From: an uncultured Streptococcus sp.
Lineage (GTDB): Bacteria; Bacillota; Bacilli; Lactobacillales; Aerococcaceae
Direction: 5' to 3'
Length of the DNA: 64,000 bases
Assembly: GCA_963523415.1 (NCBI GenBank)
Contig: CAURBR010000006.1
Coordinates: forward strand, 1,823 to 65,822
Under the pieces are notes generated by a model. It saw only the letters and a list, made by a program, of their open reading frames with translations. It made no database searches and had not been told where the DNA came from. Below are positions 10,952-57,307 of this stretch, piece by piece (the stretch's first letter is position 1; every line of letters starts with the position of its first letter). The position numbers and the translations under genes were made by a program.

Positions 10952-11280
10952 AACACTTTAGTGATTTTTCAGTGGAGAAAACCTTTCGATTAAAAAGCAG
11001 AAAACGAACGAGAATGTGCTTCGTAAATTATTATTTTGGAAAACGAAGAGTCTTCGGATATCTTCATAGAAACAACAATTGCTATACCGGAACGAGCCTT
11101 CGTCTCGTTTCCTATCGAGCTTCAAACTGACTCTAGGAAATTAATTTCCAGAGTCAGTAATTCACATCGATCATGACCGCTATTGTTATTCCTATAGAAT
11201 CCGAAGACTCTTCGTTTTCCGAAGTACTTTCTAATGTTGGCTTTTTAACCAGAAAGATTTTCTTGAAAAATCACTGTGTT
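10952..11280 (+). repeat. Rod-like inverted-repeat element, copy A
   Basis: Perfect 22-bp IR 11038-11059/11199-11220, outer arms AGTGATTTTTCA/TGAAAAATCACT, core GAGCC..GTCTC..TTCAAA-[31-nt hairpin]-TAATTC shared with copies B-D. Confidence 0.85.
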
Positions 11281-11501
11281 TCATTTCATAAAAATCCAAT
11301 CCTCTAAAAGTAAATTCCCTTCAAAAGAACCCTCTGGATGGAATGGGAGAAACAATTAAGGAGTGGGTGCAATCTTGAAAAACTACGAGCTCATTCGAAT
11401 ATCTTCATGGGACAACAATAGCTATAGATGAATAGCACAAGTTACCATATTTGGTAACTTATGCTTTAGTAAAGATTCATCCACTTTTTATTTTTGTGCA
11501 C

Positions 11502-11530
11502 AAAAAAACCACCGGAAAACCGGTGGTATC
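11502..11530 (-). terminator. Intrinsic terminator of cspA
   Basis: ACCACCGG-AAAA-CCGGTGGT stem with T-tract on the minus strand. Confidence 0.8.
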
Positions 11531-11545
11531 AAAGTTTAAGTTAAA

Positions 11546-11746
11546 TTATAGTTTAACTACGTTAGCTGCTTGTGGTCCACGAGCGCCTTCTTCAACATCG
11601 AATTGAACTGCTTGTCCTTCTTCTAATGTTTTGAATCCTTCTGATTGGATTGCTGAGAAGTGTACGAATACATCGTTTCCACCTTCACGTTCGATAAACC
11701 CAAAACCTTTTTCTGAGTTAAACCATTTTACTGTACCTTGTTCCAT
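11546..11746 (-). CDS. cspA: Cold-shock protein
   Basis: [27 protein letters not shown]; 66 aa after AGGAGG. Confidence 0.95.
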
Positions 11747-12033
11747 GAACATTTCCTCCTTGTGCCAGTAGCACGTTTTATTCATATTCTTGCTAATGGT
11801 CCGAAAGAAGAATACTTTATTCATTTCCTATACCTAACAAAAACACAAGATAAGTATAACATCTCACAGGTAATTTTTCAAGAGTATTTCCGAATGTCCA
11901 TAGAATTATTATGCACCACTCTCGATTAATGCATTTTTTCCGAATGGTCTCCTTCAATAGCATTAATATTTTTCGTAAAATCCGAAAATCAAGTTTTACT
12001 CTATTGATTAAAAATTCGTTATTTCACATGTGT

Positions 12034-12717
12034 TTAAATGATGCCATACTCTTTCAGTGAGAGGCAATCCTCTCCTCCAACAATAAAATGATCTAATAAT
12101 TCGATTCCCATGAGTTCACCACATTCCATCAAGCGACGTGTAAAATCGATATCCGCTTGTGAGGGTTCGGGGTTTCCACTTGGGTGATTATGGCCAATAA
12201 TGACGCGTGCCGCCGAAAACCGTACTGCCTCCCGGAAGATTTCTCTAGGATGCGCCACTGCACTGTTCAACCCACCGATGAAGATCATTTTCTTCTTAAT
12301 AATCTCGTTTTTCGTGTTTAAATACAAGGCGACGAGATGTTCCTGATAGGCATCCTTCAACTCTTGCACAATCCACTGGCCCGCCATTTTGGAGGACGTA
12401 ATCTTACCGAGTTTCATTTGCGCGGCATTGCTTAATCGCACACCCAATTCCATGGCTGCCTTAAGTTCAATTGCCTTGGTTCTGCCGATTCCATTAATGT
12501 GCATGAGTTCGTCCAGACTCGCCATCTTCAGCGAATGCAAATCCTCGAAGGTGTTTAAGACAACGACCGCCAGCTGCAGGACGTTTAAATCCTTGGAACC
12601 TGTTCGCAGTAATATCGCGAGCAATTCATGTGTTTCAAGCACTTTAGCGCCATATCGCTCGAGGCGTTCTCGTGGCATGGCGCTCAAAGGCACTTCTAAT
12701 AATTTTGATTCAATCAT
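12034..12717 (-). CDS. radC: RadC/JAB-domain protein
   Basis: PRERL, HPREIF, HNHPSG, LLDHFIV. Confidence 0.95.
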   Translation of the reverse strand: MIESKLLEVPLSAMPRERLERYGAKVLETHELLAILLRTGSKDLNVLQLAVVVLNTFEDLHSLKMASLDELMHINGIGRTKAIELKAAMELGVRLSNAAQMKLGKITSSKMAGQWIVQELKDAYQEHLVALYLNTKNEIIKKKMIFIGGLNSAVAHPREIFREAVRFSAARVIIGHNHPSGNPEPSQADIDFTRRLMECGELMGIELLDHFIVGGEDCLSLKEYGII

Positions 12718-12760
12718 TGTGACACTTCCTCTTTGTTTTCTCTACAAAGAGTTACGATGT

Positions 12761-14032
12761 CTATTCTTCTTTGGGCTTACGGTTCTTCCACCAATGACGA
12801 ACTTCGGCGATAAAATACAACGATCCTGTTACCCATAATTCGCTCTTGTCGTCTGTTGAACTTGCGAAACGATCGATGACGTCTTCAAAGCTTTCTTCAT
12901 AGGAAACCTGAGGAGAATTCAAGTACGCTTCCACATCACTTCTAGCAATCGACTGTCCCTTTGAAGGATGGAAACTTGTCAAGACAATATTCACATCAAG
13001 AAGAGCTTCTTGCAATCTTAGAAGCATCTGTTTACTATCTTTTCGAGTGAGTGCGCTAAATAACAGCGTTTGTCTCTTGCCTTTATGCACCATCATGTTT
13101 TGTACAAGTCGCTCGATAGCAGGCAAATTATGAGCTCCATCAATCATCACAAGTGGTGTGTCTTGCAACACTTCCATACGTCCTGGCCAGGAAACCACTC
13201 GTAGGTCTGCCTCGATGCATTCGGGTTGCACACTTCTTCCAGTAGCTTCCATCCACGCGCGAAATGCTCGAATCGCAACGGTCGCATTCTCCTTTTGAAA
13301 GGCTCCTTTAAGGGCTAACTGCTTCAGCGGAATCGTTAACTCGGCATCTTGATACGAATCTTCAATTAGAAAGAAGTCTTCGTCAAACGCCTGAACAGTT
13401 GCGCCTTTCTCACTAGCAATCTCACGAATCACATCCATACATTCACGCGTGACTGGTCCGACAACCACTTGTTGTCCAGATTTAATAATCCCTGCTTTTT
13501 GCGCCGTAATTTCTTCCAACGTACTTCCGAGTAAGTCTTGATGGTCTAATCCAATCGTCGTAATCACGCTCACAAGAGGATGTCCGACGTTCGTATTATC
13601 GAGAAGACCCCCAATCCCAACCTCAATAATCCCAAGGTCGACGACTTCTTGTTGAAAGACGACAAACATCATTGCCGTTAAAATCTCAAAATAGTTAAAG
13701 GGGCCCCACTCTTCGAATAAGCGGCTCTCCACTTCTTTCATGACTGATGCGGCTTGCCAGAACGGCTCTTCTTCAAGAGGCACTCCGTCTAGCTGAATGC
13801 GTTCCCTAATACTGTCCATATGTGGTGAAGTGAATGTCCCTACTCGCAATCCATGCGCCTTTGCAAAGGCTGTCACCATCGCTGCAGTAGACCCTTTTCC
13901 ATTCGTTCCCGCAATATGAATACTCTTCAACCCACGTTCTGGATTTCCAAGTGCTTCTAGAATAGCCTCCATGCGGTACAATCCATGTTTACGCGGAATA
14001 CTCTCGCTCTTTTTTAACCACTCTTGAATCAT
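12761..14032 (-). CDS. folC: Folylpolyglutamate synthase/dihydrofolate synthase
   Basis: HIAGTNGKGST, FTSPH, EVGIGG, WPGR, DGAHN. Confidence 0.93.
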   Translation of the reverse strand: MIQEWLKKSESIPRKHGLYRMEAILEALGNPERGLKSIHIAGTNGKGSTAAMVTAFAKAHGLRVGTFTSPHMDSIRERIQLDGVPLEEEPFWQAASVMKEVESRLFEEWGPFNYFEILTAMMFVVFQQEVVDLGIIEVGIGGLLDNTNVGHPLVSVITTIGLDHQDLLGSTLEEITAQKAGIIKSGQQVVVGPVTRECMDVIREIASEKGATVQAFDEDFFLIEDSYQDAELTIPLKQLALKGAFQKENATVAIRAFRAWMEATGRSVQPECIEADLRVVSWPGRMEVLQDTPLVMIDGAHNLPAIERLVQNMMVHKGKRQTLLFSALTRKDSKQMLLRLQEALLDVNIVLTSFHPSKGQSIARSDVEAYLNSPQVSYEESFEDVIDRFASSTDDKSELWVTGSLYFIAEVRHWWKNRKPKEE

Positions 14033-14139
14033 TCACTCACCTCCTATTTTCCTCATTTATCATAACAGAAAATGACTCTTTGGAACATACAAAAGAGAGC
14101 GCATGACACTTCATACGCTCTCCTCACCGTTAAAACGGA

Positions 14140-16782
14140 TTAGATTTTTTTCAATGTTGCGATACGTTCTAACACGGCTTCACGTTGTGCTTGATAGTCC
14201 GCACCTTTTGCACGTTCAGCTTCAACAACCGCTGCAGGAGCTTTTGCCACAAATTTCTCGTTCGACAACTTCTTCTCGACGCGATCCACTTCTTGTTGCA
14301 ATTTCTCTGCTTCTTTTTCAAGACGAGCAATTTCGTCTTCGATGTTAATTAATCCTGCTAATGGTAGGTAAATTTCCGCACCTGCAATCACTGAAGTAAC
14401 TGCATCAGATGGTGCCTCAACGTCTTCACCATACACGAATTCTTCTGGATTTGAGAAGCGTGCAATGTAAGATTCGTTTTCTTTCAAGATAGCGTAGTGC
14501 GCTGCGTCACTCACTTTCGCAAGAATATTAATTGGTTTTGATAATGGCGTATTCATTTCGTTACGAACCGTACGTACGGAACGGATGAAGTCCATTAAGA
14601 ATTCCATTTCTTCAGCTGCTTTTTCATCCATTTGTTCTGGGTGAACGGTTGGGTAAGCGGCCACTACTAATGATTCCCCAACGTGAGGAACAGATTGCCA
14701 GATTTCTTCTGTCACGAAAGGCATGATTGGGTGTAATAGACGTAATGTGTTGTCTAGTACATATACAAGAATGCCACGGGTTGTTAATTTCGCAGCTTCG
14801 TCGTCCCCTGCTAATGTTTCTTTCGACATTTCGATATACCAGTCACAGAAATCATCCCAGATGAAGCGATACAATAAACGTCCTGCTTCACCGAATTCAA
14901 ATTTCTCGAAGAGTTCTGTCACTTTTCCAATCGTTTGATTCAAGCGCGTCAAAATCCATTTATCCGCAAGAGTCTTCTCACCAGTGATATCGACTTGGTC
15001 TACTGTTAAATCGCCCACGTTCATTAACGCGTAACGGCTTGCGTTCCAAATCTTGTTGATGAAGTTCCATGCAGCGTCCATCTTGTCTGTTGAGTAACGA
15101 ACGTCTTGCCCTGGAGCAGAACCGTTTGCTAAGAACCAACGAAGCGCATCGGCACCATATTGCTCGATGACTTCCATTGGGTCAACCCCATTCCCAAGGG
15201 ACTTACTCATCTTGCGTCCTTGGCTATCACGAATCAATCCGTGAATTAGAACATTCTTAAATGGACGTTTGCCTGTAAATTCTAACCCTTGGAACATCAT
15301 TCGACTTACCCAGAAAGTAAGGATGTCATACCCTGTAACAAGAGTATCTGTTGGATAGTACCGTTTATAGTCAGCTGTCTCTTCATTTGGCCAACCCATT
15401 GTTGAAAATGGCCATAATGCAGATGAGAACCACGTATCTAATACGTCTGGATCTTGTGTCCAGTTTTCAGTGTCACTTGGTGCTTCCATACCTACGTACA
15501 CTTCGCCTGTTTCTTTATGATACCAAGCTGGAATTTGATGTCCCCACCATAATTGACGTGAAATGACCCAGTCGTGAATGTTTTCCATCCAACGTAGGTA
15601 AGCATCGTTGAAACGTGGTGGGTAGAAGTTTACAGTGTTGTCACCTTCTGCACGTTGCGCATTGATGGCTTGCTCTGCTAAAGGTCCCATCTTCACGAAC
15701 CATTGTTTTGAAAGACGTGGTTCAACGATGACATCTGTACGTTCTGAGTGACCCACACTATGTACGTGCTTTTCAATTTTCACAAGAAGACCAGCTTCTT
15801 CTAAATCTTTCACGATGGCTTTACGCGCAGTAAAACGGTCCATACCTTCGTATTTACCTGCTAATTCGTTCATTGTTGCATCATCGTTCATCACGTTAAT
15901 ACGAGGTAAGTTATGACGGTTCCCTACTTCAAAGTCGTTTGGGTCATGCGCTGGAGTGATTTTTACAACCCCTGTTCCGAAATCTTGCTCAACGTATTCG
16001 TCAGCGATAATTGGAATCTCACGACCAACAAGCGGCAAGATCACTGTTTTCCCGATAAGCGCTTGATAACGTCCATCGTCTGGGTGAACCGCAACTGCTG
16101 TATCTCCAAGAAGTGTTTCTGGACGAGTCGTTGCGATTTCTAGGAATCCACTTCCGTCTGCTAGAGGGTAGTTCATATGATAGAACGCGCCTTCTACGTC
16201 TTTATGGATTACTTCGATATCGGATAATGACGTTTTTGCTTTAGGGTCCCAGTTGATGATGTATTCACCACGGTAGATTAAGCCTTTTTCGTATAAAGTA
16301 ACGAAGACTTTCTTCACGGCGTCAGATAACCCTTTATCTAATGTGAAACGTTCTCTGCGGTAGTCTACAGAAATCCCCATTTTTGCCCATTGTTCACGGA
16401 TATGGCTGGCATATTCTTCCTTCCATTCCCATGTTTGTTCTAGGAACTTCTCACGGCCAAGGTCATAACGAGATAAGCCTTCTCCGCGTAATTTTTCTTC
16501 TACTTTTGCTTGCGTTGCGATACCCGCATGGTCCATCCCTGGTAACCATAAAGTGTCGAACCCTTGCATGCGTTTTTGACGGATAATCATGTCTTGTAAC
16601 GTTACGTCCCAAGCATGCCCCAAGTGTAATTTCCCTGTTACGTTTGGTGGCGGGATAACGATTGAATAAGGTTCAGCGTTTGGATCTTCGTTTGGATGGA
16701 AGACGCCTGAATCAACCCACCATTGATATTTACCAGCTTCAACTTCTTGTGGTTGAAACTTAGATGACATTTCTTTAGTCAT
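14140..16782 (-). CDS. valS: Valine--tRNA ligase
   Basis: [14 protein letters not shown] (HIGH), KMSKS, C-terminal coiled coil; start at MTKEM after GGAGG. Confidence 0.98.
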
Positions 16783-16814
16783 TGATTTTCCTCCTTGTAT
16801 CTTGTTTGTGTCCA

Positions 16815-17055
16815 ATAAAAAAATCCTATGAAGACACTCTCCATAGGACGATTAAATTCGTGGTACCACCTAATATTCGCGTAAAAATTCATTACGCCTC
16901 GATGTTGGTAACGAAGTGTCGTCTCCGTACTCTATTACTGCATTTCGTAGAGTAAGCTCACAAGCTACCTTCAAATGAATCTGCTAGGAAGTTGCACCAA
17001 GTCTTCCCTCTCTCGTAAACAAAGTCATTTTACTCCTCTTGTTCATCGCTCTAAT
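16815..17055 (-). promoter_or_regulatory. T-box riboswitch (Val specifier) upstream of valS
   Basis: Minus strand: stem I AGTA..GAGAG..GGTG..GAA, specifier GUA (16968-16966), T-box AGGTGGTACCACG (about 16859-16871), terminator CCTATG..CATAGG-T7. Confidence 0.93.
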
Positions 17056-17117
17056 ATACAAAATATTCTACCATTATGGCGATGTGCTTGCAACAATATC
17101 GCGCTGTAATAGAAAAT

Positions 17118-17489
17118 CTAACTCTCCTTTGATTGTTTTAAGGAATAGCGATTTACAATTGCCACTAACCCAAAGATAAACGTGAATCTAACGACGGATT
17201 TTTGCCACGACTCCCATTGCTCAAACCCGAAGAAATGATTCATGATGAGAATAAAAGCAATAGTGGCTACCATGCCCATAAAGATGGCAGCTCCTCCGCG
17301 ATTCATCTTCTTGAGCTGTTCTGGATTATCCCGATTCACCCAAGTATAAAAGGCAATCCCAACAACTATCGCACTCACAATAAATAGCACGATATCTTGA
17401 CGAAATAGTAGCTGATAGATGGCATTCACGCCATTGATGACCCCAATTGCTATAGTACCAATTTCTCTAACTTTTTGACTCATTTCCAA
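17118..17489 (-). CDS. Hypothetical 4-TM membrane protein
   Basis: 123 aa hydrophobic ORF with GGAGAGGGG RBS. Confidence 0.65.
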   Translation of the reverse strand: MEMSQKVREIGTIAIGVINGVNAIYQLLFRQDIVLFIVSAIVVGIAFYTWVNRDNPEQLKKMNRGGAAIFMGMVATIAFILIMNHFFGFEQWESWQKSVVRFTFIFGLVAIVNRYSLKQSKES

Positions 17490-17634
17490 CAGCCCCTCTC
17501 CCTAAAAACGGATTCCTAAACTTATCTCTATTATACTGCTCCCCCAGCGTTTTTACTATACGCGCAAGCAAAAAAAGAACCCAGCATTACTGCTAGGTTC
17601 TACTTCTTCGGCCTCTATAGCCGAGTTTTCTATT

Positions 17635-18666
17635 TTATTCTTCTACCCCTAGTAATAGGTTCACTAGGATATCCACTGTAACATTACCGAAGTAACGGCG
17701 GATGTCGATGGCTTCGAAGGCTTTTGTTAAGTCTTCACGGTTATATCCGACTCCCACTAGCGCTTTTTCTACATCGCTGATTTCTCCAAGACCGAAGAAG
17801 TCTCCGTTAATCTTAATGTCTTTGATGGTATTCTTTTCAACGTTCAAGCTGAACTCGATTTGTCCTGCTGGAGTACGTTTAGATTGTTTGAATTCGAATT
17901 TTGGATTCTTTCCGTAGTTCCAATCTGGGTTGTTGAAGTACTTGCTGCGTAATTCTTCTACACGCACCCAGTCTTCATCCGTTAAAACATACTCTTTAAT
18001 CGTTGATGTATCTTCCACATTGAAGATGTTTTTCAAGAGTACTTCGCGAAATTGTAAGATGTCTAAGTCTTGATATTCAGGCGCTAAGTATGGTTTGATA
18101 TTTGTCACGCGTGAACGAACCGACTTGATGCCTTTTGACGCGATTTTCTCTTGTTTTGGACGTAAAATTTGTGGCAAAATGCTCACATCTAGATCCAGCA
18201 TTAATGTTCCATGCGCTGTTAAACGGCCATTGTTTGAGTACATCGCATTTCCAGAGAATTTCTTGCCGTCGATGAGAAGGTCGTTACGTCCTTGTAACTC
18301 TGCCCCTGTTGCTCCCATTTTATGAAGGGCTTCAATCACGGGTTCTGTGAATTTCCCAAAATCACGGAAGCTATCGCCATCATCTTCTGTAATGAAGCAG
18401 AAGCAAATATTTCCCATATCGTGATACACGGCTCCCCCACCTGAGAAACGACGAACAACTTGTACGCCAAGTTTATCGACACCATCTTGATTGATTTCTT
18501 CGATGGTATTTTGGTTTTTCCCGATGATAATCGCATTCTCGTTAACATAAAATAACAAAATTGGTTCATCCAGTTTCTTTTCGTTTAATAAGAAATATTC
18601 GATGGCTAAGTTGGTCGTAGCATCGTAGATTTCTTGTCCATTCCGTTGATTTTTTACATAATACAT
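17635..18666 (-). CDS. lplA: Lipoate-protein ligase A
   Basis: VRRFSGGGAVYHD, GRNDL, KFSGNA, SVRSRVTNI. Confidence 0.93.
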   Translation of the reverse strand: MYYVKNQRNGQEIYDATTNLAIEYFLLNEKKLDEPILLFYVNENAIIIGKNQNTIEEINQDGVDKLGVQVVRRFSGGGAVYHDMGNICFCFITEDDGDSFRDFGKFTEPVIEALHKMGATGAELQGRNDLLIDGKKFSGNAMYSNNGRLTAHGTLMLDLDVSILPQILRPKQEKIASKGIKSVRSRVTNIKPYLAPEYQDLDILQFREVLLKNIFNVEDTSTIKEYVLTDEDWVRVEELRSKYFNNPDWNYGKNPKFEFKQSKRTPAGQIEFSLNVEKNTIKDIKINGDFFGLGEISDVEKALVGVGYNREDLTKAFEAIDIRRYFGNVTVDILVNLLLGVEE

Positions 18667-18852
18667 CCGAAAGTCTCCTCTCTTCTACTAATCTCTCTAG
18701 CGTCATCATATCATAACCTCTACTTTCACACATAAGAAAGAGCTCGATTTTACATTGTTTTTACTCCTCTTCAAAACGCAATTACCATATATGGTAATTG
18801 CAGCCTTTCAATAAGAAAAACGCACCCATTCCAGGATGCGCTTTGTAAAATA

Positions 18853-19614: not shown

Positions 19615-19789
19615 GATTGTATCCCTCTTTTCCTTATTGTATCAAAACACTGTTCTATTGAAAGAAAATCGCTTCTTTCTTTGGACGTCTTCCTTAATAA
19701 GAGAGTACTCCTTAAAACTAAAATGAACCTAAAATCAAAAAGTTTCTACAAAAAAGTGACTCCTTTAACAGAAGTCACTGACTAATTTT

Positions 19790-22337: not shown

Positions 22338-22612
22338 GCTTTTTATTCTTTAAAAAGGCTTTTATGACAAGTTTTTGACTGAGTGCTGATTCCTCCAAAT
22401 CCTTGCGGATTTTTTTATAATGGCTGTAATGGGGCAACGGCTTGAGCCACGGTCTCAAGCTCTTTCAAGATTCAAATGTACTCTAGAAAATAAATTTTCA
22501 AGAGCACGTAATTCACTTTGAATGCTATCCCCCATTACTATCATTATAAAATCCGCTAGATTCTTCGGAATCAGCGTCAATCAAATGAAATAGCAGTTTC
22601 AAAATAAAAAGC
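22338..22612 (+). repeat. Rod-like inverted-repeat element, copy B
   Basis: Arms GCTGATTCC/GGAATCAGC, GCGGATTTT/AAAATCCGC, GTAATGGGG/CCCCATTAC; core CAACGG(22435)..GAGCC..GTCTC..TTCAAA-[32 nt]-TAATTC. Confidence 0.85.
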
Positions 22613-22745
22613 GGGAGGAGGCGGGTGAGTTTGCTTCTTGTGGTGCGGTTGAGAAATGGGGACACTTTAGAATGGATCGTTCTCCATGAGGGAATGAAAA
22701 AAGCGAGGGACGTTGATACGTCTCTCGCTACAGGTTCGGTAGTGA

Positions 22746-27868: not shown

Positions 27869-28013
27869 TTTGTGACACTCTCCTTTAGTTTTAATATCCT
27901 CATTGTACCATATTTTACAAATAGTGTGTAAAATAGTACGTAAAGATAGAGTAGTAAAACCTAAGATTTTCTGCATCCATCCTAAGACGGATTTTGCAGT
28001 AGAAAGGAGCCCC

Positions 28014-28718
28014 ATGATTCAGCAACAGTTATTCTCGCCCATTCCACAGAGGATGGAGCATTTTCCTCTTTTTCCCTTGCCACAAAGTTATGTGGATTTT
28101 CTTGTGCAAAATGGCGCCGGATTCTTCACGAACACTAAAATCACAACGGTGGAACCAACGCGCTTTGGCCTCGACTACGCCCTCTGTAATGGACTGAGTG
28201 GCTACTCAGAAGGCCCGTATTTCCCAAGTATTCTGGATACTACATGGTCTCCAGAAGTGACAGGACTTCCTGAATATTTCGTAGTCTTCTTCCAAGATGG
28301 ACCTGTCTACTATGCTTTTGATTATCAAAACGGCGCTGCCAAGGAACCAAGCATCCGCCTGATAGATGTTGAAATGGATCAGTGGCTCAAAGTGGCAAAC
28401 TCCTTTGATGAGTTCCTAACAAAACTAGAAGCCACAACCGAAGCTATTACCTATGATATGAAAGACTGGATTTCTATCCATACCTTGCTGCAACAAATTG
28501 GACAGGAGAATCCCGATACGCTGGAGGGATTACTTGAAATCTTGCAAGATACCCATCCACAGCTCTTTTTGCAGCAAACCGCCTATGCATTAGTGCATAC
28601 AGAATCTAAAGCCATTCGTTCTATTTATAAAGAGCGCTTCGCCTTTATCGAGGATTTCCTCAGTACAGAATTCTCTTCTTATCCAGAATACCATCACTGC
28701 CGCACTTTATTATCATAA
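28014..28718 (+). CDS. SMI1/KNR4 (SUKH) family protein
   Basis: LPQSYVDFL..NG, FDY..EPSIRLID, VANSFDEFL; start after AAAGGAG. Confidence 0.8.
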   Translation: MIQQQLFSPIPQRMEHFPLFPLPQSYVDFLVQNGAGFFTNTKITTVEPTRFGLDYALCNGLSGYSEGPYFPSILDTTWSPEVTGLPEYFVVFFQDGPVYYAFDYQNGAAKEPSIRLIDVEMDQWLKVANSFDEFLTKLEATTEAITYDMKDWISIHTLLQQIGQENPDTLEGLLEILQDTHPQLFLQQTAYALVHTESKAIRSIYKERFAFIEDFLSTEFSSYPEYHHCRTLLS

Positions 28719-28786: not shown

Positions 28787-29007
28787 TTACCAAAAAAAGT
28801 TCAAAACGGAGAATACGAAGGATTTTATAGTAGCAGTAATGGGGAATAACACAAAATGCGAATTAAGAGCCGTAGGAAGTCATTCCGTACGGCTCCTTTG
28901 AGGCTTTTGAGGTGAGAGACGACAGGCTCGAACCGTTGTCCCATTACAGCTATTATAAACAAATCCTTCAGTATTCGAAGTTTTGAACGAAGTTCATTTT
29001 TTAGTAA
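28787..29007 (-). repeat. Rod-like inverted-repeat element, copy C (inverted relative to A, B, D)
   Basis: Arms GTTCAAAAC/GTTTTGAAC, GAAGGATTT/AAATCCTTC, GTAATGGG/CCCATTAC; core GAATTA(28860)-[31 nt]-TTTGAG(28897)..GAGAC..GGCTC..CCGTTG(28933). Confidence 0.85.
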
Positions 29008-47607: not shown

Positions 47608-47647
47608 AAATAAAAAGAACCGAAATAAATTCAATTCTTTTTTATGT

Positions 47648-48693: not shown

Positions 48694-50439
48694 TTATCCT
48701 TTCCACTGACTTTGATAGAGATTGTAGTAAAATCCACGTTGCTCCATCAAGCTGGCATGATTTCCTTTTTCAATGACATGTCCGTCTTTTAAGACTAGAA
48801 TCACATCCGCGGTACGAATGGTCGATAAGCGGTGTGCCACGATAAAGCTCGTGCGTCCTTCCATCAGATGTTGAAAGGCTTCTTGAATCTTCAACTCGGT
48901 ACGCGTATCGATAGAAGAAGTCGCTTCATCAAGAATCAGCATATTTGGTTGTCCCATCATCACACGCGCGATGCAGAGCAATTGTTTTTGCCCTTGCGAG
49001 AAGTCCCCACCATCATCTGAAATCACTGTATCATATCCTTGTGGTAGACGACTTACAAATCCATGAATATGGCAGAGTTTGGCGATGCGAATCATCTCTT
49101 CTTCGCTAATCGTTGGATTTCCCATCGTGATATTTTCACGGACAGTTCCCGTTTGAAGCCATGTTTCTTGAAGCACCATTCCAAAGCCATTTCGTAAGGA
49201 CTGACGACTGATGTCTTCAATCGAAAGCTCGTCGATGGCTAATTTTCCATTATTAATATCGTAGAAACGCATCAATAAGTTAATCAATGTCGTCTTCCCA
49301 CTTCCAGTTGGACCGACAATCGCCACACGTTGCCCTGGTTTGACTTCAAGCGAGAAGTCTTCAATGAGCGGGTGGTCTTTCACATAAGAGAAGTCCACAT
49401 GGCTAAATTCCACCGCTCCGTTGAAACTTTCAGGAGACACAGCACCTGCACGTTCTGGACTCTCAGAAGGTTGTTCCAACAGTTCAAACACGCGGGTCGC
49501 ACAGGCTATCGCATTTTGTAGTTCGGTAATGACTCCTGAGATTTCATTGAATGGTTTCGTATATTGGTTTGCGTAACTTAAGAAGGACGACAATTGTCCG
49601 ACCGTCACGCCACCACTCATCACGAAGAACGCCCCGAACACGCCCACACTGGTGTAGACGATGCTATTGACAAAGCGCGTCGCCGGATTCGTAATGCTCG
49701 AGAAGAAAATAGCCTTGAGCGATACATCCGTTAACTCCTTATTAATTACCGCGAAGTCCTCGATGACTTTTTCTTGCTGTTGAAAGGCAGTAACTATTCG
49801 TGTCCCCTCAATCATCTCGTTCATATAGGCTGTTTGGTCGCCACGAATTTCCGATTGTTGTTTAAAGAAATGATAGGATTTCTTCGCGATAAAGCTGGCC
49901 ATCACAAAGGATACTGGCGTCACTACCACTACTACAAGCGTCAATGTCATATTGACACTGAGCATAAAGACTAAGGTTCCTAGAATTGTCATCACACCGG
50001 TGAATAACTGTGTGAATCCCATCAATAATCCATCCGCAAATTGATCCGCGTCTGCAATGATACGGCTCTCGATTTCTCCGGCTGGATGAATATCTAAATA
50101 ACTGAGTGGCAATGTCTCGATTTTTTCAAGCGCATCTCTACGAAGGTCACGAACCACAGAGTACGTCATCTTGTTGTTGCTGAGGTTCATAAAAAACTGC
50201 GCAACAGAAGCTATTATTGTAAAAAGTGCAATCTGCCAAAGGATAGCAAATAGTCCTTCATAGAACACTTGGCCCGTGTCCAGCATTTGGTCTACGGCTT
50301 CTCCGACTAATTTTGGAATCATTAACGTCCCAAATACATTCACACTCGCCAAAAGAATGGACGCTATGAAATAAATCTGGTAGCAACGGATGTAGCAGAG
50401 GACTTTACGGATCGTTTCCCATTGGGTGTTCTGTCTCAT
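48694..50439 (-). CDS. Heterodimeric ABC exporter subunit (TMD plus NBD)
   Basis: GPTGSGKTT, FSQGQKQ, LDEATS. Confidence 0.92.
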   Translation of the reverse strand: MRQNTQWETIRKVLCYIRCYQIYFIASILLASVNVFGTLMIPKLVGEAVDQMLDTGQVFYEGLFAILWQIALFTIIASVAQFFMNLSNNKMTYSVVRDLRRDALEKIETLPLSYLDIHPAGEIESRIIADADQFADGLLMGFTQLFTGVMTILGTLVFMLSVNMTLTLVVVVVTPVSFVMASFIAKKSYHFFKQQSEIRGDQTAYMNEMIEGTRIVTAFQQQEKVIEDFAVINKELTDVSLKAIFFSSITNPATRFVNSIVYTSVGVFGAFFVMSGGVTVGQLSSFLSYANQYTKPFNEISGVITELQNAIACATRVFELLEQPSESPERAGAVSPESFNGAVEFSHVDFSYVKDHPLIEDFSLEVKPGQRVAIVGPTGSGKTTLINLLMRFYDINNGKLAIDELSIEDISRQSLRNGFGMVLQETWLQTGTVRENITMGNPTISEEEMIRIAKLCHIHGFVSRLPQGYDTVISDDGGDFSQGQKQLLCIARVMMGQPNMLILDEATSSIDTRTELKIQEAFQHLMEGRTSFIVAHRLSTIRTADVILVLKDGHVIEKGNHASLMEQRGFYYNLYQSQWKG

Positions 50440-52160
50440 GCTTCATCCTCCTTTGGAAATTGTGAATAGTAAATTTCTTGGTAAATCTCATTGTTGGCTA
50501 AGAGCTCTTCATGTGTGCCTTTTCCGACAAGATTTCCTTCATCGAGTACAAGAATTAAGTCTGCATACTGCACCGACGCCGCCCGTTGAGACACGATAAA
50601 GGTCGTTGGCCGCGGCGTTTGGTTCTTAATCGCCTCACGTAATTTCGCATCGGTCGCAAAGTCTAATGCCGAAGCACTATCATCTAGAATTAAAATCGGT
50701 GCATGTTGAGCAATCGCACGTGCAATCGTCATCCGTTGTTTTTGCCCACCGGATAAATTGCGACCATTTTGTTCGATGCCATAATCAAGTCCGCCTTCTT
50801 TCGTCTGTACAAATTCGCTGGCTTGAGCGACACCGAGTGCATGTTCTACCACTTCACTCGAAGCTGATGCATTTCCAAAACGAACATTGTCGGCAATCGT
50901 TCCACGGAAGAGTTGCGCCTTTTGCAAGACCATTCCGACCGCTCCACGAAGCGATGCAAAACGGTAGCGACGAACGTCTTCTCCGAACACCTCTACATTC
51001 CCTTGGGTCGCATCATAGAAACGGGGAATCATATTCACAAGAGAAGATTTCCCGCTACCAGTCCCACCAATCACGCCGATAGTCTGTCCTTTCAGCGCAG
51101 TAAATGAGATATGGTTCAGCGCTGCGTTTTGGTCTCCTTGATACGTCAACGTCACGTCTTTAAATGCCACCGCCACTTCCCCTTCAGGATGAACATTTTC
51201 AGTACCTTCGACCATATCCGCTTCAATCGATAGAATCGTATCGATACGCTCTGCACTTGCCACTGATTTTGTCAGCAATACAACCAGGTTTGCGAATTTT
51301 ACAAGCTCCACTAAGATTTGAGACATGTAGTTTGTTAAAGCGATGACTTCCCCTTTCGTTAAGGTGCCTGTATCCACTTTAATTGCCCCGCCATAAAGAA
51401 TGACGATGAGCGCCACATTCACAATCACAAACGTAATAGGATTCATGGCTCCTGAGAGGCCACTCACTTTTTGTTGCGCTTGATTCAACGCTTCGGTATC
51501 CTCTCTAAACGACTGAATTTCTTTTTCTTCTCGGTTAAATGCACGAATCACACGCACCCCGAGTAAGTTTTCATGCACGAGGCGCATAATGCGATCGAGT
51601 TTTCCTTGCACACGGCGATACATCGGAATCGTCCAGTAAATAATCCCGAATACAACGACTGCTAAGATTGGAACTGTGATGGTAAACGTCCATGCCATTT
51701 CCACATTCACGACAAAGGCCATCACAATCGCTCCCCCGACGATAAACGGCGAACGTAGCAATAGACGAAGTGCAATGTTCAACCCGTTTTGCACAAGATT
51801 CATATCACTCGTCAAACGCGTGAGTAAAGTGTCATTGCCTAACGCATCGAGTTGCGAGAAACTAAAGTATTGAATTTTTGAAAAGAGCGCCTGTCTCACG
51901 TCAGCCGTAAATCCAGTTGCCGCTTTTGCCGCAAAATACTGAGCGGTGATCGACACGACAACACCTACAATCCCTAGTCCAATCAAAATCGCACCTTGAC
52001 TAAGTATCAAGGACGTGTCTTGGTTTTCAATCCCTTTGTCAATAATGACCGCCATAATCAGTGGAACAAATAACTCCAGAATTGCTTCAAATAATTTAAA
52101 TAACGGTGCCAATATCGTTTCTTTCAGATACGGCTTTAAATAAGGTTTTAACTTGTTCAC
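50436..52160 (-). CDS. Heterodimeric ABC exporter subunit (degenerate Walker B)
   Basis: GGTGSGKSS, LSGGQ, LDDSASALD; GTG start after AAGGA. Confidence 0.92.
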   Translation of the reverse strand: MNKLKPYLKPYLKETILAPLFKLFEAILELFVPLIMAVIIDKGIENQDTSLILSQGAILIGLGIVGVVVSITAQYFAAKAATGFTADVRQALFSKIQYFSFSQLDALGNDTLLTRLTSDMNLVQNGLNIALRLLLRSPFIVGGAIVMAFVVNVEMAWTFTITVPILAVVVFGIIYWTIPMYRRVQGKLDRIMRLVHENLLGVRVIRAFNREEKEIQSFREDTEALNQAQQKVSGLSGAMNPITFVIVNVALIVILYGGAIKVDTGTLTKGEVIALTNYMSQILVELVKFANLVVLLTKSVASAERIDTILSIEADMVEGTENVHPEGEVAVAFKDVTLTYQGDQNAALNHISFTALKGQTIGVIGGTGSGKSSLVNMIPRFYDATQGNVEVFGEDVRRYRFASLRGAVGMVLQKAQLFRGTIADNVRFGNASASSEVVEHALGVAQASEFVQTKEGGLDYGIEQNGRNLSGGQKQRMTIARAIAQHAPILILDDSASALDFATDAKLREAIKNQTPRPTTFIVSQRAASVQYADLILVLDEGNLVGKGTHEELLANNEIYQEIYYSQFPKEDEA

Positions 52161-52258
52161 ACGCGTACTTCCTTTTACATTCATAGTACTTTTATTGTAT
52201 CATATTTTATCCTCTTCAAAAGCGGAAAAAGTTGCTTCCTGCTTTTGATTTTTCAGGG

Positions 52259-52292
52259 TGTAACAATTATGTTACGTAACAAAAATGTTACA
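52259..52292. promoter_or_regulatory. 34-bp palindrome made of two WalR-box-like sites
   Basis: TGTAAC-AATTA-TGTTAC on plus and TGTAAC-ATTTT-TGTTAC on minus, abutting. Confidence 0.5.
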
Positions 52293-52411
52293 CTCACTTT
52301 TTTTACTTTTTAAAGATGTATCATTAATGATACAAAACAATTTTTTCCCACAGTTGAGTTTAGTGGAGCCAATAATTATTAGAAGACTGGGTATTAGAAA
52401 GTTGATTACGA

Positions 52412-52463
52412 AAAATTCTACGGATTCTATAATAGCCATAACGTGGGATAGCATTAAATGCGA
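52412..52463 (-). repeat. Truncated half-copy E of the rod-like element
   Basis: AAAATTCTACGGATTCTATAATAGC..GGGATAGCATTAAATGCGA matches the arm and core edge of copies B, C, D. Confidence 0.7.
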
Positions 52464-52734
52464 GGGAGAAAGACAGAAACACCCTAGATACATTATTGTA
52501 TCTAGGGTGTTTCGTTTTCTTTCCCCCACAAAGTTGAATAGGTATGAGCAAGCTGTTTACAGTGCAGCTCATACCATTCAACTACTGTGCTTAGAGGGAG
52601 TTAAAAATTTCTTTCTTAGTTACATTATAGAGTTAGACGCAGTAGCTGATTGGATTAAGCTTCATCACTTGTGATTTGCTTAATCCTAATCAGCCTTGCG
52701 GAAATCCTTCACGGTGCGAAGGATTTGAGACCAC
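52464..52734. repeat. Two inverted units of a second hairpin-repeat family
   Basis: Plus unit 52464-52589 (CCACAAAGTTGAATAGG..CCATTCAACTACTGTG); minus unit 52638-52734 (CCGCAAGGCTGATTAGG..CCAATCAGCTACTGCG); each preceded by a hairpin. Confidence 0.7.
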
Positions 52735-52740
52735 TATAAG

Positions 52741-52770
52741 AAAACGGACTCACACTGTGAGTCCGTTTTT
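52741..52770 (-). terminator. asd terminator
   Basis: AAAACGGACTCACA-C-TGTGAGTCCGTTTT. Confidence 0.8.
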
Positions 52771-52787
52771 AGCTTTTGTCTTACTCC

Positions 52788-53780
52788 CTATTTACGCAAA
52801 CCGTGCGCTTCAATATACTCCGCAATTTGGATGGCGTTGCTTGCTGCACCCTTACGAATATTGTCACCCACACACCAAATGTGGAAGCTGTTAGGTTGAG
52901 AGATGTCGCGACGAATACGTCCTACATACACTTCATCATGCCCAGTTGCTTGTAATGGTGTTGGATACACATTTTCCTCAGGCTTATCTAATACGATTAC
53001 ACCTGGTGCTTTTTCTAAAATCGCACGAATTTCTTCAGGAGTTGTATCTTTTTCGAAAGTCACATTGATTTCTACAGAGTGTGAGTTGAATACTGGTACA
53101 CGTACACAAGTAGCAGTGATGGCTACATCGTCTGATAAACCTAGAATCTTGCGAGTTTCTTGAATCATTTTCATTTCTTCTTTTGTATAGCCGTTTCCTA
53201 AGAAAACATCAATATGTGGCAATACATTATTGTAAATTGGGTGTGGGTAGTTTGTTGGAGCTTCTCCTTTTTCTCCATTTCTTAAATCATTAATCCCTGC
53301 TTGTCCAGAACCTGAAACAGCTTGATAAGTTGTATACGCCACTCGTTTCAATCCAAATGCATCATGCAATGGACGTAATGGCACAACAGATTGGATGGTT
53401 GAGCAGTTTGGATTTGCGATAATCTTACGCTCTAATGTTGGTGCATTACATTCTGGTACGACTAAATCAATCTCTGGATCCATTCTCCATGCGCTTGAGT
53501 TGTCGATAACAATCACGCCGTCACGTTCTGCGATTGGCGCAAATTTCAATGAAGTTCCGCCCCCTGCTGAGAAGATGGCGTAGTCAATATCACGCTTGAA
53601 GGAGTCTTCCGTTAATTCTTCGACTACATAATCTTTTCCTTTAAACTGTAAGACTTTTCCTGCTGAACGCGCTGATGCAAATAAATACAAGTGATCTACT
53701 TGTAAGTTACTTTCTTCTAACCGTTCAATCATTTTATTCCCTACAACACCTGTTGCTCCTACAATTGCAATATTTACCAT
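52788..53780 (-). CDS. asd: Aspartate-semialdehyde dehydrogenase
   Basis: VGATGVVG, DNSSAWRM, ANPNCST, YQAVSGSG, DNIRKGAA. Confidence 0.96.
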   Translation of the reverse strand: MVNIAIVGATGVVGNKMIERLEESNLQVDHLYLFASARSAGKVLQFKGKDYVVEELTEDSFKRDIDYAIFSAGGGTSLKFAPIAERDGVIVIDNSSAWRMDPEIDLVVPECNAPTLERKIIANPNCSTIQSVVPLRPLHDAFGLKRVAYTTYQAVSGSGQAGINDLRNGEKGEAPTNYPHPIYNNVLPHIDVFLGNGYTKEEMKMIQETRKILGLSDDVAITATCVRVPVFNSHSVEINVTFEKDTTPEEIRAILEKAPGVIVLDKPEENVYPTPLQATGHDEVYVGRIRRDISQPNSFHIWCVGDNIRKGAASNAIQIAEYIEAHGLRK

Positions 53781-53815
53781 AAAAAATCTCCTTTTATTAA
53801 ACACTATGAGAAAAA

Positions 53816-54460
53816 TTATAGCGAATCTCTCTTTGAAAGTAAAGAAACGTCTTCCTTCACAACACATTTGTAGCTGGTATAAATACACTCTTTCATGAGT
53901 GCATCATCTGTGCATACATTCAATGCAATCGAAATCCAATGCTTCTTATTCATATGATACGCTTCGAAAATCCCTTCAGTTGCAATAAGTCGCTCCTTAT
54001 CTTCCGGATGAATCTTCACGTTCAAAATAAGAGCATTCTCCTGGGAAGTCACTCCTAGTTTTTGAAGCGGCACTTCCATCATGAGCCCATACCATTTGCC
54101 TTTATCTTCGACCATAAAACCCATCGCCTCCGTCTTCTCAAACGGATTGCCATGATACGGGACGATATTTTCGGTCATCCACTTCGTCCACTTCTGGCGC
54201 GCTTCTTCGATGCCCGATTGCTCGGGATGCATCCACTGGAACGCTAGCTCCTCTGCCTCTTCGCGCAACGCTTGAGCGATACTGCTACTTGTTGTTGGGA
54301 TATCAAACAATGTGTATCGCTCGTTACAGTCATCGAGTGCTATCAGTTCTAAGCCTTGTTTTTTGCTGGCACTCACTACCTGAAAGCAAAATCCCTCCAT
54401 TTGGCTTGGAAGGACTTTCCCTTCCAGTTCTGGTATGTCCTTTGTTAAATTCCATTTCAT
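53816..54460 (-). CDS. MmcQ/YjbR-family protein
   Basis: KWYGL, ILNVK, AYHMNKKHWISI. Confidence 0.85.
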   Translation of the reverse strand: MKWNLTKDIPELEGKVLPSQMEGFCFQVVSASKKQGLELIALDDCNERYTLFDIPTTSSSIAQALREEAEELAFQWMHPEQSGIEEARQKWTKWMTENIVPYHGNPFEKTEAMGFMVEDKGKWYGLMMEVPLQKLGVTSQENALILNVKIHPEDKERLIATEGIFEAYHMNKKHWISIALNVCTDDALMKECIYTSYKCVVKEDVSLLSKRDSL

Positions 54461-54472
54461 AAGTGCATCCTC

Positions 54473-56455
54473 TTATAAGCGATACTCGGCACGCAATTCG
54501 AGAATCACATCACGCAAGTCTGCTGCTTTCTCAAAATCTAATTTTTTCGCAGCTGCACGCATATCTAGCTCTAGCAACTCAATTGCTTCACGTCGTTGTT
54601 CTTGTGTCATCTTCTTGAAGTCTTTTGCAGTTGTAGGAGTATCCTCTTTTTCAACCTCGTGTGTGATGGAGATTAAATCACGGATATTCTTCACGATGGT
54701 CTTCGGAACGATGCCATGTTCTTTATTATACGCCTCTTGGAGGGCACGACGACGATTCGTTTCTTCAATCGCTTTTTGCATCGAATCCGTCATCTTATCC
54801 GCATACATAATCACACGGCCATTAGCGTTCCGCGCTGCACGTCCAATCGTTTGAACAAGTGACCGTTCACTCCGCAAGAACCCTTCTTTATCCGCATCCA
54901 GAATTGCCACAAGAGATACTTCTGGCACGTCTAACCCCTCACGAAGCAAGTTGATTCCAACCAATACGTCGAATTCCCCGAGTCGTAAGTTACGGATAAT
55001 CTCCGTCCGTTCCAATGTCTTAATATCGCTATGCAAGTACTTCACCTTAATACCCACTTCTTCTAAGTAGTCGGTTAAGTCTTCTGACATCTTCTTGGTT
55101 AAAGTCGTAATAAAGACGCGTTCATTCCGTTCGACACGCATGTTTATTTCACTAATCAAATCGTCAATCTGACCTTTGATTGGGCGCACTTCCACGAGAG
55201 GATCTAATAGACCCGTTGGACGAATAATTTGTTCAGTTACAGTTGGTGTATGAGCTAACTCATATGGACCTGGAGTCGCAGAAATATATATAATCTGTGG
55301 AACCCGTTCCTCGAACTCTTCAAAACGCAACGGACGATTATCAAGAGCGCTTGGAAGGCGGAATCCGTATTGAATCAATTGTTCCTTACGTGCACGGTCT
55401 CCATTATACATTCCTCGAATTTGAGACAATGTAATGTGAGATTCATCCACCACGAAGAGAGAATCCTTCGGGAAGAAGTCTAATAACGTATATGGTGGTT
55501 GCCCTGGTAATCTACCATCCATGTGACGAGCATAGTTTTCAATCCCGTTACAATAACCCATTTCAAGAAGCATTTCGATATCATAATTTGTCCTTTGTTC
55601 AAGACGCTGAGCTTCCAACAATTGATGGTCATCTCGTAATTCTTGAAGTCGTGTAGACAGTTCCGCTTTAATAGTCGCGACTGCTTTTGTAATTTGGTCC
55701 TCATTCGCCACAAAGTGCGTTGCTGGAAAAATCGGAACATGTTCCACGGTTGCTTTGATTTCACCCGTTAAAACATCAACTTCTTTGATGGCTTCAATTT
55801 CATCTCCGAAGAACTCAATACGAAATGCCGTCGCATCATTTCCTGGGAGAAAGATTTCAACTACATCTCCACGAACGCGGAATGTTCCACGGCGAAAATC
55901 ATAATCATTGCGCTCAAATTGCATTTCTACGAGTCTACGGAGTAAGCTATCTCTCTCAATTTCCATCCCCTCACGAAGTGATAAGACATGATCTCGGTAA
56001 TCTTCTGGATTAACTAAACCGTAAATAGAAGAAACAGAGGCCACAACAATGACATCTCGTCTTTCCAAGAGTGCACTTGTTGCCGAGTGGCGTAGTTTAT
56101 CGATTTCATCATTGACGCTAGATTCCTTTTCAATATAAGTATCGCTAGAAGGAACATAAGCTTCTGGTTGATAATAATCATAATACGATACAAAATACTC
56201 CACGGCATTTTCTGGGAAGAATTCTTTTAACTCACCGTATAATTGACCAGCTAGCGTTTTGTTGTGTGCTAATACTAATGTTGGTTTATTCACTTCTTGA
56301 ATCACATTTGCAATCGTAAACGTCTTTCCTGTTCCTGTCGCTCCAAGTAAGGTCTGTTCTTTTACCCCATTTTTAATTCCATCGACTAATTCTTGAATGG
56401 CTTGTGGTTGATCCCCGTTCGGTTTATAGGGAGCCACTAATTTAAATTGATCCAT
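54473..56455 (-). CDS. uvrB: Excinuclease ABC subunit B
   Basis: [23 protein letters not shown]-terminal UVR domain; start at MDQFKL. Confidence 0.98.
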
Positions 56456-56639
56456 ACCTGCACCTCTACTTCTTTCTATTGACTCTAGTATACCATCATT
56501 GACAGATATTTTCTGCACGGTTGACCGCTTCTACAATCAATACCTTGCTTGCATTTCAAGAAGGACTTTTGTATAATAGTTCCTGTTGGAAACAACTGAT
56601 CAGTGATTATACATGTTAAACGAAAGAGGGGTGAACCCA

Positions 56640-56894
56640 TTGCCAAATATCGCATCACAAATCAAACGTGTTCGCACTAACAAAAAGTCAACACTAGCAA
56701 ACAATGCACAAACTTCTGCTATGCGTACTGCTATCAAAAAATTTGAAGCTGCAGCTGCACAAGGTGCTGAAAATGCTGAAGAATTATTACGTGCTGCTCA
56801 CAAAGCAATCGATGGAGCTGCTTCTAAAGGATTAATCCACGCAAACAAAGCTTCTCGTGACAAATCACGTCTTGCTTCAAAATTAAGCAAATAA
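56640..56894 (+). CDS. rpsT: 30S ribosomal protein S20
   Basis: TTG start; [28 protein letters not shown]. Confidence 0.97.
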
Positions 56895-56996
56895 TCTGTA
56901 GCCTGAGAATTGATCTCGGGCTCTTTTTTTATGCTCGAAAAATAAGAACGCCTTATGGGTAATGAATGAAAAGAGTAGAACACACCCTTCGAACTC

Positions 56997-57307
56997 CTCT
57001 GAATTTTTTTATTAGGTAAAATCCTTACGGATTTCTTCAAGGTAGAGTCTTATATCGGATAAACTGAAAAGAATCAGTGTTGTTATTGAAAGAGTTATAG
57101 CGTGGCAACGGCTCGATCCTAGGTCTCTCGCCTTTAAAGCCTCAAAGCAGGAGTACGGAAGAACTTCCTACTCCTGCTAATTCGCATTTAATGCACTTCC
57201 CCGCTATTCTTTCAATAAACTGATTCTTTTTTTGTTTATCCTCTATGTAGATTTCACCCGTAGAATCCGTAAGAATTTTACCCATTCCTAATTCCTTAAT
57301 TTCAGAG
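56997..57307 (+). repeat. Rod-like inverted-repeat element, copy D
   Basis: Arms GGTAAAAT..CTTACGGATT/AATCCGTAAG..ATTTTACC, AAAAGAATCAG/CTGATTCTTTT, TTATTGAAAGA/TCTTTCAATAA; core CAACGG(57106)..CTCAAA-[31 nt]-TAATTC(57178). Confidence 0.85.

Follow-up and report, generated by a model that had tools for sequence, protein, structure and literature searches.

Four intergenic hairpin elements lie in the window (the whole stretch of 64,000 nucleotides analysed here, from a source genome of 1.79 Mb that is 88% complete), at the positions where an earlier reading of the sequence alone had placed them. Copy A (10952..11280, minus strand) is a three-way-junction rod with its core at 11056-11201 and tightly paired arms of ~195 bp, and is flanked by a small gene ending near 11545 and by mreB. 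Copy B (22338..22612, minus strand; core 22407-22553; arms ~212 bp) is flanked by murF and cshA. Copy C (28787..29007, plus strand; core 28821-28966; arms ~190 bp) is flanked by a convergent pair, the ORF at 27903-28718 and groEL, and copy D (56997..57307, minus strand; core 57083-57219; arms ~268 bp) lies past the terminator of a small gene, presumably rpsT, whose end is at 56895. All four had been described as sitting just beyond terminators, and terminator-like hairpins can indeed be read from the sequence at each; a terminator consensus scan of copy B alone gives two sites at 22709-22745. The competence gene comEC is also found inside the window.

The two fragments listed in the sequence-only reading are present as well. 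The fragment at 11395..11426 (minus strand) is a one-arm remnant of a second, tandem copy near A, and two relatives have a second full copy at its place (L350, L365). The fragment at 52412-52463 is actually the 5' part (52398..52463, plus strand) of a compound element of ~52398-52775; it runs through the left arm to the conserved internal loop and lacks the core's right half. The interruption is caused by module X (52464..52590, plus strand), a ~127-bp two-hairpin repeat that sits in the core's conserved GAATTA loop, and further nested hairpin modules (52636..52775) replace the compound element's apical hairpin and adjoin the end of asd. Six full copies of module X, 83-100% identical, occur in this genome, and the module also interrupts the site B allele of another genome (G047, locus L290). 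For other hairpin modules, too, the points of insertion in the core are fixed. Identity of module X with SPRITE was considered and rejected, since the SPRITE description in the available part of PMC3049150 does not fit.

Fold, copy number and orthologous sites

The core is a ~150-nt three-way junction with strict covariation (91% paired, 654 two-sided changes), which bears out the covarying structured core proposed earlier very strongly, and the flanking stems, apical hairpins, purine-rich internal loops and tandem GA pairs noted then all appear in the alignment. Folding z-scores are -12.5 for copy A and -10.6 for copy C, with no shuffle equally good in either case. The structure folds on one strand; mismatches of the outer arms are strand-biased (232 purine-purine vs 47 pyrimidine-pyrimidine). 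Wobble is rare, at 18 of 726 core pairs (2.5%), a frequency that is low for RNA helices. Core G·T pairs outnumber A·C ones (18 and 5, p = 0.01), as RNA would also give; the corresponding counts in the alignment A2 are 64 and 73. The scarcity of wobble, together with the plasmid homologue described below, leans towards single-stranded DNA.

Many further copies had been predicted, and the nhmmer search recovers 101 matches in the genome, 77 near-full (>70% of the model) and 24 partial, and none in the reversed genome; a covariance-model search gives 86 matches. In G023, a relative with a complete genome, there are 85 copies. The copies are non-coding, short and dispersed, in a genome that also has an ISL3-family transposase. 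Their mean identity within the genome is 59%, with few near-identical dispersed pairs, and the outer arms (110-386 bp) are without fixed ends. None of the 77 copies with both neighbours known lies between divergent genes (Fisher p = 7e-6, with copies that are not independent). The gene 3' of the folded strand faces the element in 61 of 80 copies, often within 20-60 nt, and its mRNA would therefore carry the unfolded-type strand. In G023, the folded strand runs against the fork direction, on the leading-strand template, in 50/78 copies (p = 0.017). A -10-like TAnnnT hexamer occurs in the left arm of 31/53 Granulicatella copies; it was rejected as a conserved signal because none of the outgroup or plasmid versions inspected has it.

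Sites A, B and D are common to several species. An orthologous copy is found at site A in 22 of 30 loci fetched, and the site C core is 98.6-99.3% identical in eight of nine orthologous loci. Cores of the same type are 91-99% identical, and nearby third codon positions go down to 55-84%. Among orthologues, in a comparison limited to alleles at least 88% identical and biased towards conservation, the variable sites amount to 21/342 in paired positions, 4/64 in conserved loops and 12/28 in apical loops. Relatives have two allele types at site B and recombinants of them (mosaic alleles), and a wholly different allele (~60% identical) occupies site D in other species. The site B copy is absent from a 217-218-bp region of five distant relatives; empty regions occur in this distant clade only, where they are not alignable to base level, and the clade itself yielded no clean empty allele.

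Homologous cores in ISL3 elements and a homologous arm in rolling-circle plasmids

The enzyme associated with the core is a DDE transposase of the ISL3 family (PF01610 by Pfam), which the sequence-only reading did not consider. Of 60 homologous loci in related Lactobacillales, 17 are MITEs of 242-366 bp that have both ISL3-type ends, and their 8-bp target duplication is perfect in 10 and 7/8 in four more. The right end was found at 24/60 outgroup loci vs 0/60 in the wrong orientation, using an end-profile trained on core-less ISL3 elements only. In other loci the core directly follows the C-terminus of the transposase itself, in G086 (L254-L256, 90-91 bits; L258, 75 bits) and in G411/G425 (41.5 and 31.2 bits). 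The layout of these carriers is transposase stop codon, core and right inverted repeat, and the strand that folds has the sense of the transposase mRNA. Judged by the transposase 3' end, the closest named element is IS1476.

Most of the ISL3 elements examined are without the core. In the MITE-bearing genomes G092 and G173, ISL3 elements are intact, with ends of a similar kind and 8-bp duplications, but core-less, as is the active multi-copy ISL3 of the present genome (at C8), whose ends are seen at many contig breaks. The core was found in none of 20 ISL3 loci of the genus and in none of the IS1476-type plasmid copies fetched. L241 is a core-less sister element of the G086 lineage, against which the core in L254 resembles an insertion of ~240 bp. 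Conversely, outward-facing ISL3 ends (>10 bits, within 150 nt) accompany 0/71 copies of this genome, which leaves no anchor for a target duplication; none was found within 350 nt of them, nor beside 86 cores from titled carrier loci, so it is from homology alone that we infer their ISL3 origin. End-less copies are found in other genera too (G149, G447, Enterococcus lemanii and Aerococcus).

A HUH/Y1 enzyme or a reverse transcriptase had been suggested as the mobiliser, with a Y1 or reverse transcriptase gene flanked by the same core, and this part of the proposal is not supported. Matches to reverse transcriptase (PF00078), IS110 and TnpB, the genes that a retron or other RT-linked RNA, an IS110 bridge RNA and a TnpB guide RNA would call for, are all zero in this 88% complete genome. 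Its sole Y1 gene, of the IS200 type, was rejected as mobiliser, having unrelated ends and a patchy distribution in the genus; ten Y1 loci are without the core, and G023 has 85 copies yet no Y1 match.

The internal-loop arm of the core (model positions 38-94) matches five rolling-circle plasmids of two replicon families at 22-46 bits, namely pM4, pWCFS102, pLP2000, pLP2111 and one E. faecium plasmid. In all five it lies on the nicked strand, 197-244 nt upstream of the nick motif, in a replication region. The plasmids pUB110 and pTA1060 carry ssoU and ssoT; as arm matches they reach 13.9 and 19.2 bits at best, as generic hairpins do. The full core gives one partial match among plasmids, in a 592-kb Aerococcus record. 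An sso is described as functioning solely on the nicked strand (PMC5703833, available part). The element thus resembles ssoA/U/T/W/L in being a strand-specific long hairpin and in having an arm homologue upstream of the nick site on that strand; unlike an sso, it is chromosomal and present ~85-fold here, and the plasmids share one arm only. No paper mapping sso activity to the plasmid arm was found in the literature searched, which excludes subscription papers, e.g., on pM4.

The query R1 matched three of nine Lactobacillales families sampled, and 150 other genomes across the phylum gave no match and 150 across the class one weak match, with 19 candidates scored per genome, so that weak copies may be missed. 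A weak match in G341 (L202) was discarded as not being a real core. Viral contigs gave no match to the full pattern and 64 to the half pattern, 0/64 of which form the hairpin, and no phage records with the core were found. At gathering score, Rfam 15 finds in the window a T-box elsewhere and nothing more, other matches being sub-threshold; eight related loci gave no Rfam match.

Origin and function of the elements

The earlier view of a non-autonomous element selected for structure is supported by the MITE homologues with their target duplications and by the very strong covariation. The copies are best explained, with a probability of about one half, as immobilised, end-less descendants of ISL3 MITEs, whose cargo, a strand-specific branched hairpin, is kept for its single-strand structure. 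The first step is seen in the relatives, where the core lies downstream of the ISL3 transposase stop codon and inside the right inverted repeat, or forms by itself, flanked by two ISL3 ends, a ~250-bp MITE with 8-bp target duplications; it is therefore spread in trans by an ISL3 transposase. A burst in the ancestor of the Granulicatella clade may then have brought it into gene-downstream, terminator-side sites, with later decay of the ISL3 ends and duplications. The retention of cores at the same sites would reflect selection on pairing and on conserved loop bases, and recombination would exchange whole alleles or inner cores.

The last and least certain step concerns the working form, which may, tentatively and by analogy with an sso, be a folded DNA single strand that a host enzyme recognises. 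It would aid second-strand priming of the excised or unwound element, or the joining of its two ends, and the host may have retained the structure as a priming or recognition signal. A bolder version is doubtful: the core would be a single-stranded DNA priming signal common to rolling-circle plasmids and ISL3, used by MITEs for conversion of single- to double-stranded DNA, and the ~85 copies of the Granulicatella clade would have been domesticated as priming or replication-restart sites, a role suggested by the leading-strand template bias in G023.

It is rather improbable that the core itself is a mobile hairpin, moved by some single-strand enzyme and landing beside terminators and so also in ISL3 3' ends, the ISL3 MITEs amplifying it later. 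Such a hairpin would account for the multi-copy families without ends that several genera have, the insertion-like difference between L241 and L254, the two unrelated alleles at site D and the entry of other hairpin modules at fixed points, but the genome offers it no reverse transcriptase, IS110 or TnpB, the Y1 ends are unrelated and Y1 is missing from G023. Low identity within the genome with few near-identical dispersed pairs, arms without fixed ends and the sharing of sites A, B and D among species also speak against it.

Slightly less probable still is selection of the structure as RNA, whatever its origin, i.e., as a stabiliser of 3' ends, as a very large terminator working in both directions, or as a small or antisense RNA whose junction binds a protein. 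The three-way junction with tandem GA pairs, the excess of G·T over A·C in the core, the absence from divergent gene pairs, the agreement of folded strand and transposase mRNA strand in ISL3 and the TAnnnT hexamer are consistent with it, but wobble is scarce, the mRNA of the facing gene would in most copies be of the unfolded type, Rfam has no match and the plasmid homologue sits in a replication region. Of the assembled contigs inspected for expression, X1 is probably DNA and X2 does not extend over the element. Functionless relics, in which hairpin-templated mutation or repair and between-species recombination maintain the pairing, are very improbable: mosaic site B alleles show recombination and comEC is at hand, but arm templating should erase mismatches, which are instead strand-biased, unpaired loops are as conserved as stems, and same-type cores are more conserved than nearby third codon positions.

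Among known systems, the IS1476/IS1167-like ISL3 group and its MITEs resemble the elements through homologous cores in relatives, behind PF01610 transposases or between ISL3-type inverted repeats with 8-bp duplications; the IS1476-type copies fetched and the ISL3 of this genome differ by having no core, and the window copies by having no ISL3 ends. EFAR (Efa-1) of Enterococcus faecalis, reportedly characterised by Venditti in 2007 as modular and targeting stem-loops, is similar in this respect and as an intergenic double-hairpin repeat of ~160-170 bp. The available part of PMC2267715 gives this length and form; the junction core and ISL3 ends are different from EFAR features, and the first five records of the supplement, inspected by eye, are without the core motifs GAATTA, TTTGARGCT and GAGAC. 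Pneumococcal BOX, RUP and SPRITE are also modular, nested intergenic repeats, largely dormant and enriched between convergent genes (PMC3049150, available part), but are linked to ISSpn2, IS630-Spn1 or no IS, SPRITE consisting of an 18-bp duplex and a U-rich tail. REP/REPIN sequences are hairpins dispersed through intergenic regions on the downstream side of genes (PMC3733652, available part), as here; unlike in the REPIN-RAYT (Y1) system, the inner core is conserved, the outer arms are variable, and there is no repeat-flanked Y1 gene.

No published description of this repeat family was found in the literature searched (subscription papers, e.g., on EFAR and pM4, lie beyond it), nor any of an ISL3 element with a conserved, covarying junction as its cargo; the available parts of PMC10969869 do not mention ISL3, and those of PMC12016507 and PMC4490491 hold nothing specific on the family.

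Bacterial MITEs usually retain their ends while the interior drifts. Here it is the interior that is preserved, as a strand-specific junction under strict covariation; it is found in three families, and one clade has kept it at dozens of fixed sites where its own ends are gone. It ties together the dormant repeats found between genes in Firmicutes, transposition by ISL3 elements, the mechanism of which is to our knowledge little studied, and the lagging-strand regions found in rolling-circle plasmids. It is also a convenient case for testing if an insertion sequence makes use of an sso-like signal and if such a signal can become domesticated in a host. Should the function turn out to be an ordinary one in RNA stability or termination, the elements still form an undescribed structured repeat family of ~85 copies. 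The carrier (Granulicatella) is an oral commensal and occasional pathogen.

Structured core and its strand

The positions of the four elements (A–D) given by a sequence-only reading were borne out, with ~150-nt cores at 11056–11201 (A, minus strand), 22407–22553 (B, minus), 28821–28966 (C, plus) and 57083–57219 (D, minus), and so was their structured fold (z = -12.5 for A and -10.6 for C vs shuffles). The folded strand (orientation of C) forms a long stem that opens into a three-way junction with two arms. One arm carries a conserved internal loop, in which RTGYGAATTA faces TTTGARGCT and which includes tandem GA pairs and a Y-R pair that covaries, and is capped by a variable hairpin; the second is a short hairpin in which an A·G pair is conserved. 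The proposed covariation of the core was confirmed on 53 of the 73 full copies, with 91.4% of 2707 cells paired and 44 of 52 pairs changed on both sides (654 cells). This level was reached by 0 of 500 shuffles, and by slid controls only to 35–43%, a control that is lenient because the structure was derived from the same sequences. In the outer arms, 232 mismatches are purine-purine vs 47 pyrimidine-pyrimidine, and therefore one strand folds. The fold is strand-specific and covarying. No Rfam family matches the element.

A role at the RNA level is one rival to action as DNA. Wobble is rare in the core (G·T in 18 of 726 pairs vs A·C in 5, p = 0.01; 33 of 73 copies, those readable by the parser), and G·T vs A·C counts are 45 vs 66 in the outer arms and 64 vs 73 in the alignment. 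This rarity leans toward DNA or a very strict reader, and is also compatible with RNA.

Copies, setting and distribution

The many genome-wide copies predicted from the window were found: an iterated profile gave 101 matches in the source genome (1.79 Mb, 88% complete), 77 of them spanning >70% of the model; the reversed genome gave 0. Mean pairwise identity among the 73 full copies is 59%, and the outer rods are without fixed ends (length 110–386 bp, median 197). Genes adjoining copies are housekeeping genes, e.g., mreB, cshA, murF, groEL and asd. Two MreB-family genes lie near each other in the window (9809–10810 and 6412–7491), and an ordinary T-box leader is found 5' of valS (16841–17055, minus strand).

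By crude ORF calls, the 80 long matches comprise 25 flanked by convergent and 52 by co-directional genes, plus 3 at contig ends; divergent genes flank none of them, vs 53 of 316 background regions. The gene 3' of the folded strand points toward the element in 61 of the 80. In a complete relative (G023), 50 of 78 strong matches have their folded strand opposed to the direction of the fork (p = 0.017, with dnaA at the start of the record and the terminus assumed to lie at 1.0 Mb), a modest bias for which gene orientation alone could be a sufficient explanation. None of the 85 matches in this chromosome lies at 0.83–1.16 Mb, around the presumed terminus.

BLAST detected the element in 19 of 24 congeners and in none of 16 other genomes, and a covariance model gave 86 matches in the source genome, 85 each in G023 and another relative (G046), and none in two further genomes (G009, G041). 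Beyond the genus, occurrence is patchy: within the order, three families have it in 13/19, 10/19 and 3/19 genomes (19/126 in a larger sample of one of these), and six other families sampled have it in none. Class-wide, there was 1 weak match among 150 genomes, and phylum-wide, 0 in 150 other genomes. Among 80 of 114 stretches listed, carriers of the core pattern are mostly Granulicatella, the name used here for the host clade by inference from record titles, or metagenome bins under the label Streptococcus or Carnobacterium; further carriers are Enterococcus lemanii, Aerococcus, Desemzia and Tetragenococcus.

Mobilisation of homologues by ISL3 elements

A non-autonomous, MITE-like element moved by a Y1 enzyme or a reverse transcriptase (RT) had been proposed. 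The first part stands for homologues in relatives, which are MITEs with 8-bp duplications; the enzyme linked to them is the DDE transposase of ISL3. No RT gene, IS110 or TnpB was found in the 88% complete genome, and its sole Y1 gene sits in a ~707-bp IS200 element with ends unrelated to the repeat. This IS200-type element (L036 1329–2035, on source-genome contig C14) is 96–99% identical in five relatives, has its ends at several contig breaks and adjoins an ORF labelled phage-like endolysin by inspection.

In one outgroup genome (G086), the core lies between the ISL3 transposase stop codon and the right inverted repeat (three loci at 90–91 bits and one at 75), and a diverged core occupies the same place, directly 3' of the stop codon, in G411 and G425. 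With an end profile trained solely on core-less ISL3 ends, the right end adjoins the core in 24 of 60 outgroup loci (top scorers from a limited genome set, not a random sample) and in the wrong orientation in 0 of 60. Both ends are present in 17 of the 60, as MITEs of 242–366 bp, with 8-bp target duplications perfect in 10 and matching at 7 of 8 positions in 4. Thus the homologues were mobilised ISL3-style, and in relatives the element is an ISL3 MITE.

One rival is an independently mobile hairpin which colonised ISL3 ends. Against a simple ISL3 origin, the core is missing from most ISL3 elements, and a sister of the G086 element has 88 nt past the stop codon vs 326 in the core-bearing form. 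Two genomes (G092, G173) also have intact, core-less ISL3 elements whose ends are similar and flanked by 8-bp duplications; another (G146) has 53 element matches and no ISL3 match. Core-less ISL3 elements of the host clade (L218–L220; G024, G054, G055) carry, in the 288 nt that follow the stop codon, a different long rod with a three-way junction, ahead of the right end, so ISL3 elements may often bear structured cargo on their 3' side. Further ~60-bp insertions split the short hairpin of ISL3-borne cores (L246, L253, L257, L197; G086, G405), and L257 has another rod inside the apical hairpin.

ISL3 ends stand beside 0 of 71 Granulicatella copies and none of 86 cores in the carrier records; the window copies, failing this test, are therefore classed as MITE-derived rather than as MITEs. 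The source genome has multi-copy ISL3, active and without core (C8:7992–9424, L224), with ~26 end sequences, most of which lie at contig breaks. ISL3-end-like sequences near copies at C13:54030 and C9:55451–55855 are oriented opposite to the MITE end.

The favoured origin is an ancient burst, driven by ISL3, in an ancestor of the clade (probability about 0.6), after which each copy would have come under selection. No account of this repeat family was found in the openly accessible literature searched; closed papers may contain one. In the way it works, the element appears to resemble the dormant, modular repeats known from pneumococci and enterococci (PMC3049150, PMC2267715, PMC3733652).

Fixed sites, plasmid arm and inserted modules

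The core is present at site A in 22, B in 24 and D in 16 of the 30 loci fetched per site; loci without it are broken by contig ends or apparently of a more distant clade, where the B region is merely 217–218 bp, except G023 and G046 at site A. Core identity among same-type alleles is 91–99%, and at third codon positions the flanking gene has 54–63% (A, B, D; 69% in one short alignment) or 80–84% (C). Among orthologues ≥88% identical, variable sites are 21/342 paired, 4/64 conserved-loop, 12/28 apical-loop and 35/190 other, counts with which a neutral relic, the weakest rival, sits poorly. Site B has two allele types and recombinants, inner core and outer arms being swapped separately, and at site D an unrelated allele (~60% identical) occupies the same position. 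Ends were lost in the Granulicatella clade and copies conserved at fixed sites.

A rolling-circle replicon of another genome (G361) is matched by the loop-bearing arm only, and BLAST with its region gave 108 plasmid records, the majority from Lactiplantibacillus and Enterococcus. The arm scores 46 bits in pM4, 32 in an E. faecium plasmid, 23 in pLP2000 and pLP2111 and 22 in pWCFS102; of seven plasmids fetched whole, pUB110 and pTA1060 have no arm match. In all five arm-bearing plasmids it lies on the nicked strand, 197–244 nt upstream of the nick motif; in pM4, this region has reportedly been described as the single-strand origin (sso) of the plasmid. One arm is homologous to a hairpin of a plasmid replication region. 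An sso is a large hairpin active solely on the nicked strand, with priming by RNA polymerase or primase (PMC5703833, PMC4595007). The element might tentatively act likewise, as folded ssDNA of sso type.

A second repeat of ~127 bp with two hairpins (module X) is inserted at the same point of the conserved loop in the compound copy at ~52398–52775 (52464–52590) and in B of G047 (L290). It has six full copies, 83–100% identical (the window copy and source-genome contigs C1, C3, C7, C22 and C35). Related modules sit in the apical hairpin in both orientations and may constitute a separate repeat family. The stretch from copy D to the downstream gene holds short, modular C/T-rich repeats, variable in number, 3' of that gene's terminator (L317–L346).
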